Shown here: positions 23,901-25,152 of the stretch, one piece after another
How positions within the stretch are numbered: position 1 is the first letter of the stretch
Layout of the letters: the number at the start of each line of letters is the position of its first letter
DNA from: a virus
UHGV virus genome: UHGV-1408657
Length of the DNA: 25,963 nt
Strand: one strand, 5' to 3'
The notes under the pieces: generated by a model
What the model was told of the DNA's origin: nothing
What the model saw: only the letters and a program-made list of their open reading frames with translations
Database searches by the model: none
Position numbers and translations under genes: made by a program

Positions 23901-24164
23901 TTTGCGGTGGTCAATGGTCAGGTCTTTATCAGTGATGCATTTATCCAGTATAGCCAAATCACGCTGGCAAAAATTAAAGAACTGCGATCAGAAAATTACG
24001 TTCAGGGACAAACGGGCACCATCATGAAATCGGACGGAACGTTTGAAATGAATGGAGCAGTTGCCGGGGAGGGGGCAATGAAAATTACCAACACAACCCA
24101 GAGCGTTAAGGACGGGAATGGCGTCCTTCGCGTGCAGATTGGGAAATTAACAGGAGTGTTTTGA
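20955..24164 (+). CDS. host specificity / central tail fibre protein, lambda gpJ-like
   Basis: 1069 aa; size, position after I, and fibronectin-III-like repeats in the C-terminal third (about residues 620-820). Confidence 0.9.
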   Translation: MATITGAKGGSQKQHTPVEQPDSAQSMARCRMLLALGEGEFAGGLDATRIFLDGTPLGNSDGSMNFENVSWDFRPGTQIQTTIPGFPAVENETSIGVSLTKVAPWTRAISNTQIDAVLVRVGINGLQQQENDGDIVGTTVQYHIDLAIDGGAYSTVMTKTVTEKLSSLYEITHRINLPKANNGWQIRIVRDTDDSTSQMLQNKTQVQAITEVIDARLRYPHTALLYVSFNAKSFNNIPKISCKPKGRVIRIPQNYDPIARTYSGTWDGTFKWGWTNNPAWIWFDILTEPRFGLGRRVTPAMLDKWELYRIAQRCDQKVPDGKGGSGTEPRFMFDVYIQAQADAWQVIKDIAAGFNGMTFWGNNMFNVVSDMPADTSKLQILTRASVVGKPTYSSGSEKNRYSSALINFSDPENHYQDRTTAVMFPDLVKQFKFKQTQLTAIGCTRESEAQRRGGWAVYSNSLDRIITVQTGLDGFAYVPGTVFAFADERLSGRVYGGRITEYNGVLKSVTTDRGTSALAGDTLMIRTLGGTVESRTIQAVNGQQLILVTAFTAEPQPNAIFVIDAGQLRLQYFRVTNLTFNDEENTYSITGAEYNATKYDAVDNNARLDTPPISLLPTGLVGQPTNITISSYDSVRQGQRIATMVASWDTPVDKNGKPQADIVAYQAQWKRGDNEWINIPETGLRNIEVPGIFSGDYLVRVRAINSGGASSLWASSVLTHLTGRTGDVPKPIGLRTTAINWGIQVDWSFPADTGDTLQTELQYSANGNGDNPLLLAGVPYPQHTYTQLGLKAGQEFWYRARLVDRIGNQSDWTDWIRGQSSANADDYLGDIADDFLTSADGDRLTSDIDTNLEAALQNALANHGTVEHQWAQYGEVRADILVVKTTIAQVDKAMAEMSTQVQAQIKDVTASLEDKLTATVDATSATAIHTLKVGVRINDIFYGAGMSIAVLAEAGKPVVTRVGFNANQFVLMSGSGDTQYSPFAVVNGQVFISDAFIQYSQITLAKIKELRSENYVQGQTGTIMKSDGTFEMNGAVAGEGAMKITNTTQSVKDGNGVLRVQIGKLTGVF

Positions 24165-24478
24165 TGGAATGGGGGATACAGACATGGGACGCTAATGGCG
24201 TCCCTAATAACTACGGAATCAAACCAATCAGCGTAGTTGGTATAATCGACCTGTTAGTGGATCAGAAAACCGGCTCTTATTCTTTCAACCTGGAACCTGG
24301 CCTGAAAGTTGGCTTTACAGTAGGGACTGCGGAGGCTGCAAGTTTGATTGCGTACACAAACAAAAGAAACATTCTTGCTTCCGGTAACACAATTACAATT
24401 CAGCCATCAACGGGCGACGGTGTTAACGACTATCCTGCAAATCAGGTTCAGCTGATTGTTTTTGCGGAGAAGGTGTAA
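24164..24478 (+). CDS. hypothetical protein (about 104 aa), translationally coupled to gpJ
   Basis: ATG overlaps the J stop (ATGA) with AGGAG upstream (ORF-track start 24161 is TTG); AT-richer than core; contains GIQTWDANGVP, which recurs in diverged form in the next gene. Confidence 0.5.
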   Translation: MEWGIQTWDANGVPNNYGIKPISVVGIIDLLVDQKTGSYSFNLEPGLKVGFTVGTAEAASLIAYTNKRNILASGNTITIQPSTGDGVNDYPANQVQLIVFAEKV

Positions 24479-25152
24479 TGGCAAAATATGGTGTTTTGCT
24501 AGCGTTACCCAATGGAAATCCTTTTGTTACTCCGGATTCCACACCATTGATACTTTATAAAAAAGTGTCGTTAAACTCAAAGTATAATGGTGATTTTAAC
24601 TCTGCGGTTATTGAGGAAAATATTGTTAATCAAAAGGCAGGGGTTGTATTCGCAAGAACAAGTACTGCGGCAAAAATCTCAGCCGTAAAAGAAGGGAACT
24701 TATTTAATGTTTCTGCTTCGAACTATAGAAGGGCTGCTTTTACTCTTGAAGCTTACTTTTTCGCAATAACTCCACAAACCTTACCCAGTCACGGTATAGC
24801 TATATGGGACGCATCAGGCACACTGGTTCTTACAAACGAATCAAGGGTATTGACAGATCTGACAACTATCGGGACGCCTGGAGCGGCTACGGGTGGAATT
24901 AATATCGATGTCACAATGCCGGGGAAATGGGCCGTAAATCCGATGGGGCTGGGATCTGTCATCATCCACGCTGGTTCTGCACCAGGTGGACAGCCAATAT
25001 TTCAGTCCGTTGATGTGGGGACGGGGTGCCATGACGACGCTGGTGGTACAAGAATTAGGGGGCAAAGTTCAACCACCGCCAGTGGTGCTACTATAGGGTC
25101 AACGAATAGCGGAATTGTGATAACGGCGATAAACACAGCCGCATATGATTAA
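24478..25152 (+). CDS. hypothetical Gly/Thr-rich protein (224 aa), coupled to upstream gene
   Basis: Start abuts the upstream stop; contains GIAIWDASGTL resembling the upstream protein; Gly/Ser/Thr-rich C-terminus suggests beta-rich structural or fibre-like protein; AT-rich. Confidence 0.55.
   Translation: MAKYGVLLALPNGNPFVTPDSTPLILYKKVSLNSKYNGDFNSAVIEENIVNQKAGVVFARTSTAAKISAVKEGNLFNVSASNYRRAAFTLEAYFFAITPQTLPSHGIAIWDASGTLVLTNESRVLTDLTTIGTPGAATGGINIDVTMPGKWAVNPMGLGSVIIHAGSAPGGQPIFQSVDVGTGCHDDAGGTRIRGQSSTTASGATIGSTNSGIVITAINTAAYD

Follow-up and report, generated by a model that had tools for sequence, protein, structure and literature searches.

What is encoded directly downstream of the gene for the tail tip protein gpJ in the virus genome UHGV-1408657? 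The stretch of this genome analyzed here, referred to as the window, is 25,963 nucleotides (nt) long, and near its 3' end two open reading frames (ORFs) follow the gpJ gene on the same strand: ORF1 (24164-24478, plus strand), which encodes 104 amino acids (aa), and ORF2 (24478-25152, plus strand), which encodes 224 aa. An initial annotation, made from the sequence alone, had treated them as two uncharacterized, apparently related proteins, different from those that lambdoid phages usually carry at this position, and had offered functions ranging from tail-tip accessory protein to receptor modification, depolymerase-like activity, and injected or anti-defense cargo. Comparison of the sequences with those of other phages indicates that the pair is a diverged Citrobacter member of a known module, annotated for years in phages N15, phi80, and T1. 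The best explanation for the pair, and one that we consider probable, is that this gp22-gp23 module recognizes the receptor at the tip of the J fiber, with ORF2 as a receptor-binding protein of the FhuA type, ORF1 as its partner, and the lipoprotein Cor, encoded next, as the matching exclusion protein.

Family membership and distribution of the gene pair

ORF1 belongs to the protein family PHROG 557, which it matched over its whole length (E = 1.7e-23) and which is the family of N15 gp22 and T1 Orf32. ORF2 belongs to PHROG 425 (E = 6.5e-52, with residues 1-224 aligned to positions 1-224 of the profile), the family of N15 gp23 and T1 Orf31. The top tblastn matches for the pair were N15 gp22 and gp23. 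Identity to the N15 proteins was 53% for ORF1, 50% for ORF2, 56% for J, and 53% for Cor; the corresponding values were 49%, 49%, 40%, and 51% for phi80 and 45%, about 41-42%, 36%, and 34% for T1. Identity of J to the J proteins of T1, phi80, and RTP was 36-40%. A megablast search of the locus against phage genomes returned nothing, because the proteins of these relatives share only about 50% identity with those encoded here. Neither ORF1 nor ORF2 had a match in Pfam, even at E values up to 1, or in NCBIfam, and a sequence search of the PDB with both proteins gave nothing meaningful.

Homologs of ORF2 were found by tblastn in 347 phage records and homologs of ORF1 in 345, with an identical taxonomic breakdown that included T1-like Drexlerviridae, Dhillonvirus, N15, HK/mEp lambdoid phages, and Klebsiella Webervirus. 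The two homologs always co-occurred, directly 3' of a J homolog. The gene order in N15 and phi80 was that of the window, namely J, gp22, gp23, Cor, a terminator, and a tail fiber gene, and the one-base overlaps were alike; in T1 and Bas05, J was followed by the small and the large gene, and cor was oppositely oriented. The pair is a common, mobile cassette and no peculiarity of this phage. The earlier view that it is unlike what lambdoid phages carry here did not hold, since N15 and phi80 have the identical gene order, and cor does follow, at 25261-25500. To call the two proteins uncharacterized is fair in a biochemical sense, but both fall into large phage families that the literature has already tied to receptor choice.

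A profile search for ORF1-ORF2 fusions among 1.8 billion representative proteins yielded 108 clusters, nearly all of them stand-alone proteins of 205-240 aa. One candidate fusion, P0201 (337 aa), was found instead to be a chimera that joins an internal J fragment directly to ORF2-like residues ~51-224 and that probably arose by deletion in a decaying prophage. Two long repeat proteins from the same search were spurious.

Genomic context and translational coupling

The carrier of the module is a gpJ-like central tail fiber or tail tip protein of 1069 aa (20955-24164, plus strand), an identical copy of which carries the Pfam domains FNIII-A_GpJ, Phage-tail_3, and Phage_Tail_Tip. The M-L-K-I-J tail-tip block upstream of the pair is of the standard lambda-like type. 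The gpJ stop codon, TGA at 24162-24164, overlaps the ORF1 start codon, ATG at 24164-24166, as ATGA, and AGGAG lies 8 nt upstream of the start. The ORF1 stop codon (TAA, 24476-24478) overlaps in turn with the ORF2 start codon, an ATG at 24478, as TAATG, with GGAG 8 nt upstream. The statement that both genes begin at or overlap the preceding stop codon was borne out to the exact coordinates, each gene having its own Shine-Dalgarno sequence. From J through ORF2 no convincing terminator was found, and the first clear terminator is an intrinsic one past cor (25513-25530, plus strand), a 7-bp GC-rich stem followed by a run of T, which closes the J-ORF1-ORF2-cor unit; an annotated terminator is present in the equivalent position in N15 and phi80. 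A side tail fiber N-terminus starts at 25559, downstream of cor and the terminator.

Two compositional features described earlier were also confirmed. The region is richer in AT, with a GC content of about 0.52 in J that falls to 0.40-0.47 over ORF1, ORF2, and cor, and the second protein is rich in glycine, serine, and threonine, which make up 29.9% of ORF2 overall, compared with 24.4% of J, and 40% of its residues 128-224. The exact proteins are on record in Citrobacter freundii. Because relatives within 90% identity sit in Citrobacter chromosomes of about 5 Mb, the phage that carries J-ORF1-ORF2-cor is identified, on sequence grounds, as a Citrobacter prophage.

Predicted structures and the shared motif

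The AlphaFold2 model of ORF1 contained one beta-sandwich (residues 23-103) and had a mean pLDDT (predicted local distance difference test) score of 81. That of ORF2 contained two lectin-like beta-sandwiches (residues 24-97 and 128-219) and had a mean pLDDT of 75. The sole strong structural match of the ORF2 model was a solved receptor-binding protein, and the two predicted lectin-like beta-sandwiches are those of a DUF6453-type fold. In a Foldseek search against viral models, all matches were to uncharacterized proteins, 200-330 aa long, of phages that infect other Gram-negative bacteria.

Sequence conservation was unevenly distributed over these models. The most conserved stretches were residues 1-20 of ORF1 and residues 1-30, 90-130, and 210-224 of ORF2, and the most variable blocks of ORF2 lay in the beta-sandwich domains (residues 31-90 and 161-170). 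The worst-placed parts of the monomer models were residues 1-20 of ORF1 (pLDDT 57-62) and residues 1-22 and 99-122 of ORF2 (pLDDT below 50). Conservation without placement in a monomer model is what one would expect where folding requires a partner, and these segments, which include the motif described next, are therefore candidate assembly interfaces.

A segment of the form GIxxWDAxG had been noted in both proteins. It reads GIQTWDANG at residues 4-12 of ORF1 (24173-24199, plus strand) and GIAIWDASG at residues 106-114 of ORF2 (24793-24819, plus strand), where it is in the linker between the two beta-sandwich domains. The pattern G-x3-W-D-x2-G had just these two sites in a six-frame translation of the whole 26-kb window, and it was present in 0.1% of shuffled ORF2 sequences. 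Positions G4, W8, D9, and G12 of ORF1 were invariant in 23 family members; among 26 members of the ORF2 family, G106 and W110 were invariant, and D111 and G114 were at least 90% conserved. It is probable that this motif marks an assembly interface.

The motif is real, but the proposal that the proteins are related through a common domain could be upheld for the short motif only. When the profiles of ORF1 and ORF2 were compared, only the 12-13 columns of the motif aligned (P = 3-5e-5, probability 68-72%), and pairwise BLAST gave an E value of 0.048. In hhalign comparisons of split profiles, ORF1 matched the N-terminal half of ORF2 with P = 0.016 and the C-terminal half through the motif only, and the two halves of ORF2 did not match each other. 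ORF1 and ORF2 have a functional motif and a fold class in common, and common ancestry is plausible.

The role of ORF1 is the part of the proposed module for which another explanation comes closest. Only ORF2 may be present in the virion, and ORF1 may be a non-structural folding or assembly chaperone for it, in the manner of tail-fiber assembly proteins. ORF1 is small, is invariably encoded just upstream of ORF2, and overlaps it, and the receptor-binding protein of LptD-type phages functions as a single chain with no small partner. Published work also describes 'one or two accessory proteins' beside receptor-binding proteins, to which no role was assigned (bioRxiv 10.64898/2026.04.02.716166). 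Homology to tail fiber assembly chaperones, which the initial annotation had named as evidence against its reading, was not found, as neither protein matched Tfa or Caudo_TAP in Pfam or NCBIfam; the pair also lies upstream of the fiber gene. A chaperone role for ORF1 is conceivable, though we consider it unlikely.

The J tail, Cor, and the receptor

In the BASEL work on T1-like and related small siphoviruses, dedicated receptor-binding proteins were proposed to attach non-covalently to the J-like fiber, and the receptor-binding proteins and the matching superinfection-exclusion proteins were found to be encoded directly downstream of gpJ, one allele of the locus corresponding to one receptor (PMC8594841). 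A 2026 preprint confirmed this scheme with genome-wide screens and distinguished FhuA-, BtuB-, LptD-, and YncD-specific families (bioRxiv 10.64898/2026.04.02.716166).

The C-terminal tail of J (GEGAMKITNTTQSVKDGNGVLRVQIGKLTGVF; 24066-24161, plus strand) is proposed as the docking site for ORF1 and ORF2. Its last ~30 residues (GEGAMKxTNxTxSVxDxxGxLRVQIGxLTG..) were conserved in every pair-carrying phage compared, which were N15, phi80, T1, Bas05, Klebsiella Webervirus, and the BtuB-type Bas04, and the tail was different in the LptD phages RTP and Oekolampad. The J tail co-varies with the type of locus, and we infer that it docks the two proteins.

The gene that follows the pair, cor (25261-25500, plus strand), encodes a 79-aa superinfection-exclusion lipoprotein of PHROG 1119. 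It matched the NCBIfam equivalog NF047972, 'phage exclusion lipoprotein Cor', with 130.5 bits (cut-off 31; E = 1.7e-38), and its sequence starts with MKNIIIPVIVCLVLSAC and has a signal peptide and a lipobox (LSAC). The literature describes Cor as a receptor-blocking lipoprotein that excludes FhuA-dependent phages, and FhuA-dependent, cor+ lambdoid phages are reported to be frequent. The gene calls on four public contigs with an identical locus skipped cor, and the gene is probably under-annotated in metagenome and metagenome-assembled genome data.

All of the checked relatives of the pair for which the receptor has been measured use FhuA. They are T1 and phi80 (PMC10373560), Bas05 PeterMerian and Bas09 PaulSarasin, which carry the pair and are FhuA-dependent (BASEL S5 table; random-barcode transposon sequencing, RB-TnSeq), and Teewinot, in which the ORF2 homolog is 49% identical over its full length. 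Local tblastn searches found ORF1, ORF2, and Cor in N15, phi80, T1, and Bas05 and found none of the three in the LptD phages RTP and Oekolampad. N15 is a phage that we take to use FhuA. The published criterion for membership in the FhuA family is more than 30% identity, over approximately the full length, to the receptor-binding proteins of FhuA-verified phages (bioRxiv 10.64898/2026.04.02.716166). ORF2 was 41.1% identical to the T1 protein and 37.5% identical to that of Bas05, in both cases over residues 1-224, and its full-length matches to the FhuA group had E values of 1e-46 to 1e-62. Because this similarity is much closer than that to the BtuB type, and because Cor is present, the pair was assigned to the FhuA type, and FhuA would be the receptor that ORF2 binds.

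Several points weigh against this assignment. ORF2 is just ~50% identical to its closest studied relatives, and the host is Citrobacter, while the receptor evidence comes from those relatives. A distant homolog of the small and large pair serves BtuB in Bas04, and family resemblance alone leaves the receptor unfixed; Klebsiella Weberviruses have the pair and lack cor. In the ORF2 model, 46 residues have a pLDDT below 50. The literature gave no experiment on FhuA binding or virion presence of a gp23-family protein and no structure of one. No virion proteomics that places the pair was found either, as the SH6 paper concerns another type of locus and the Webervirus MMBB table could not be mapped. 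The published FhuA assignments are themselves a combination of genomic association and AlphaFold3 models, and the tables of that preprint did not reveal whether the small or the large protein is its named receptor-binding protein (bioRxiv 10.64898/2026.04.02.716166).

The same J-tip module might, then, be directed in Citrobacter at some other outer-membrane protein, such as a different TonB-dependent transporter. The BtuB locus of Bas04, with its distantly homologous small and large pair and a lipoprotein, indicates that the scaffold is retargetable. The Weberviruses with the pair and without cor, the identity of just 37-50% between ORF2 and the proteins of FhuA-verified phages, and the concentration of ORF2 variability in the beta-sandwich domains (31-90 and 161-170) all favor this possibility. 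However, ORF2 is far nearer to the FhuA group than to the BtuB type, with the E values given above, an equivalog-level Cor is encoded directly downstream, and the checked relatives with a measured receptor all use FhuA. A receptor other than FhuA seems to us quite improbable.

Localization and other proposed functions

Homologs of the pair are labeled 'outer membrane protein' and 'membrane associated protein', widely propagated product names that stand in PHROG and RefSeq. These names are probably wrong, because ORF1 and ORF2 both lack a signal peptide and any hydrophobic segment (the highest 19-residue Kyte-Doolittle mean was below 1.0, versus 2.5 in Cor) and because the models are soluble beta-sandwiches. 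The names, the low-GC patch, and the position of lom in lambda could be taken to mean that the pair are membrane or outer-membrane morons, that is, Lom-like lysogenic-conversion factors that act outside the virion. In addition to the missing membrane-targeting segments, however, there was no Ail/Lom or other Pfam match, and the models contain no 8-stranded outer-membrane beta-barrel. The pair is also translationally coupled to a late structural gene and is found in strictly virulent T1-like phages, and it is very improbable that the two proteins are membrane morons.

The more specific functions suggested in the initial annotation were not supported. The pair of lectin-like beta-sandwiches, with no enzyme-family match, argues against depolymerase activity or receptor modification, and for anti-defense or injected cargo there was no PADLOC match at E values up to 1, while the strict linkage to J and Cor favors a structural role. 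It is hardly credible that ORF1 and ORF2 serve as chaperones or as parts of the side tail fiber whose gene begins at 25559, or else are such cargo, as cor and the terminator stand between the pair and the fiber gene, the pair adjoins J in T1, Bas05, and Weberviruses with the lateral fiber gene elsewhere or on the other strand, neither PADLOC nor a chaperone family gave a match, and a receptor-binding protein was the one strong match in structure.

One further product name in the family was noted. The GenBank note on T1 Orf31 (L002 28912-29601) reads 'GHMP kinase domain-containing protein' (IPR013750). Family sequence and predicted fold offer no support for a kinase, and this annotation looks spurious.

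A model for receptor recognition and exclusion

The initial suggestion of tail-tip accessory proteins expressed with J identified the right neighborhood, but the evidence is more specific and points to a receptor-recognition module on the tip of the J fiber. In the model that we propose, the late tail transcript would read through J into ORF1 and ORF2, and the overlapping stop and start codons would couple their translation to that of J. The conserved segments would hold ORF2, together with ORF1, non-covalently on the conserved tail at the C-terminus of the J trimer, residues 1-30, 90-130, and 210-224 of ORF2 forming the base that joins it to the tail. The variable beta-sandwich loops of ORF2 would contact the extracellular face of a TonB-dependent transporter, most likely the FhuA of the host, and this contact would commit the phage to DNA ejection. 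ORF1 would be an obligate partner of ORF2, as an adaptor or second subunit at the junction between J and ORF2 or as a factor in assembly. Cor would inactivate FhuA in infected or lysogenic cells, sparing superinfecting phage and released progeny from being lost on it. The J tail, ORF1, ORF2, and Cor may move together as a low-GC, exchangeable host-range cassette. Such a cassette can be read from sequence, which would allow both the exclusion phenotype of lysogens and the receptor, probably FhuA, to be predicted and would account for the host choice of the Citrobacter prophage.

A wider and considerably more tentative idea, which we hold to be possible but doubtful, is that the pair is a modular split receptor-binding system in which conserved hairpin leaders dock the sandwiches on the J trimer tails or on a neighboring module, and that the FhuA, BtuB, and LptD types go back to one ancestor. 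Candidate leaders are WGIQTWDANG in ORF1, YGVLLALPNG and HGIAIWDASG in ORF2, YGYAIYDDRG and HGIAFYNAHG in the BtuB type, and QGIYIDLNDG and QGIYVADSTD in the LptD-type protein Rtp44. The openings of the form 'G-hydrophobic-x-hydrophobic ... G' that are also present in BtuB- and LptD-type proteins, both at the N-terminus and internally, suggest that they may be a recurring assembly element. The FhuA-, BtuB-, and LptD-type families have been called unrelated (bioRxiv 10.64898/2026.04.02.716166). These 'unrelated' families may be one superfamily, as suggested by the fold link between ORF2 and the solved LptD-binding protein and by the sequence link to the BtuB type. If this is true, receptors could be swapped by changes in the tip loops, a general rule would exist for mounting a monomeric receptor-binding protein on a trimeric fiber, and there would be a handle for the engineering of host range.

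Additional observations

Exact copies of the ORF2 sequence (35 collection blocks) were confined to contigs no longer than 46 kb. Beyond the window (L007 11082-14389) there were genes for a 450-aa side tail fiber, a DinI-like protein, and an S24 peptidase (UmuD-like), an arrangement much like that of N15 after gp25. The idea of an N15-like linear plasmid, prompted by the short contigs and the DinI/UmuD-like genes, was weakened by the finding that Citrobacter contigs of about 5 Mb also carry the exact sequence of ORF1 and relatives of ORF2 with at least 90% identity.

Between the tape-measure gene and gpM, the window encodes a Fic/DOC-domain protein of 165 aa (17867-18364; Pfam PF02661, E = 9.5e-12, above the cut-off), which is likely to be a moron or toxin-like cargo inside the tail operon. 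The tape-measure to gpM stretch (16493-18440) holds several small ORFs that have no family match, one of them on the minus strand (17193-17552). At this stretch L009 (2945-3794), a contig that matches elsewhere, had a different set of genes and no Fic gene. The stretch looks like a hotspot of gene exchange.

Among the records that carry the module, eight 'Campylobacter phage' entries (e.g. A14a, 47 kb) had an enterobacterial T1-like version with ~40% identity, and they may be mislabeled or contaminant coliphages. The Klebsiella phage vB_KpnS_Call (L006 3001-3973), a Webervirus, has the small and large pair after J and no cor. Of the 115 Klebsiella/Enterobacter phage records that matched, 110 had the Webervirus ORF2-like protein with 87-100% conservation. 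This protein aligned with ORF2 of the window over residues 1-162 only, which suggests that it may have a different C-terminal, receptor-facing domain.

Comparison with known systems

The locus most closely resembles those of N15, phi80, and T1, which recent literature recognizes as the FhuA type of 'bona fide RBP locus' found in small siphoviruses and FhuA-dependent lambdoid phages. These loci have the same order of the pair after a J homolog, the stop-start overlap between the small and the large gene, homology over the full length of the proteins, and the J tail; N15 and phi80 also have cor, a terminator, and then a side fiber gene, as in the window. It differs from them in sequence, with ~50% identity, and in host, which is E. 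coli for these phages and Citrobacter here. T1 differs further in having a terminator between J and Orf32 and in the orientation of cor, which is on the opposite strand, as in Bas05.

The BtuB locus of the Warwickvirus FritzSarasin (Bas04), bas04_0025 / 0024 / 0023 (L011 5882-7046), encodes a lipoprotein and proteins of ~92 and ~204 aa beside J. The large protein is a distant homolog of ORF2 (27% identity over 178 aa by tblastn, E = 5e-6; hhalign probability 80%, P = 1.5e-5), and the small protein resembles ORF1 weakly (P = 0.027). The motif positions of the large protein match those of ORF2 (YGYAIYDDRG, HGIAFYNAHG, and ...INASHYD at the C-terminus), and J has a tail of the same type. In contrast to the window, this locus is on the opposite strand, its receptor is BtuB, its lipoprotein is not Cor, and the sequence identity does not suffice to place both in one sub-family. 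From the homology and the motif positions, the receptor-binding families of the FhuA and BtuB types appear to be related.

The LptD type, DUF6453 (PF20051), with Rtp44 and the protein of Oekolampad (PDB 9RPT) as representatives, consists of one chain of ~310 aa, encoded on the opposite strand together with the Rtp45 exclusion lipoprotein and with no small partner, whereas the window has two proteins encoded on the strand of J, followed by Cor; its J tail is also different, and its receptor is LptD. ORF2 did not match the Pfam DUF6453 model, while homologs of Rtp44 all carry PF20051, and the alignment of ORF2 with the DUF6453 profile was co-linear but marginal (P = 0.002). ORF2 is not a member of DUF6453 and may be a very distant relative. 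The notion that ORF1 plus ORF2 (328 aa) is a split form of a three-module Rtp44 (311 aa) was rejected, as hhalign paired the N-terminus of ORF2 with that of Rtp44 (P = 0.002), tests of split domains gave weak results, and the published description of the LptD type is of two sandwiches, not three.

Two well-studied systems mark out the division of labor proposed here. In phage T5, a dedicated receptor-binding protein, pb5, sits non-covalently on the central fiber and binds FhuA, and a periplasmic lipoprotein, Llp, then blocks FhuA, which resembles the arrangement proposed for ORF2 and Cor. Lambda is similar in genomic position and in having receptor recognition at the very tip of the tail, but its receptor-binding domain lies within J itself and binds LamB, and its J gene is followed by lom and then stf/tfa. 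In the window no Lom homolog was found with Pfam, and J ends in a short conserved tail, with recognition apparently delegated to the proteins encoded downstream.

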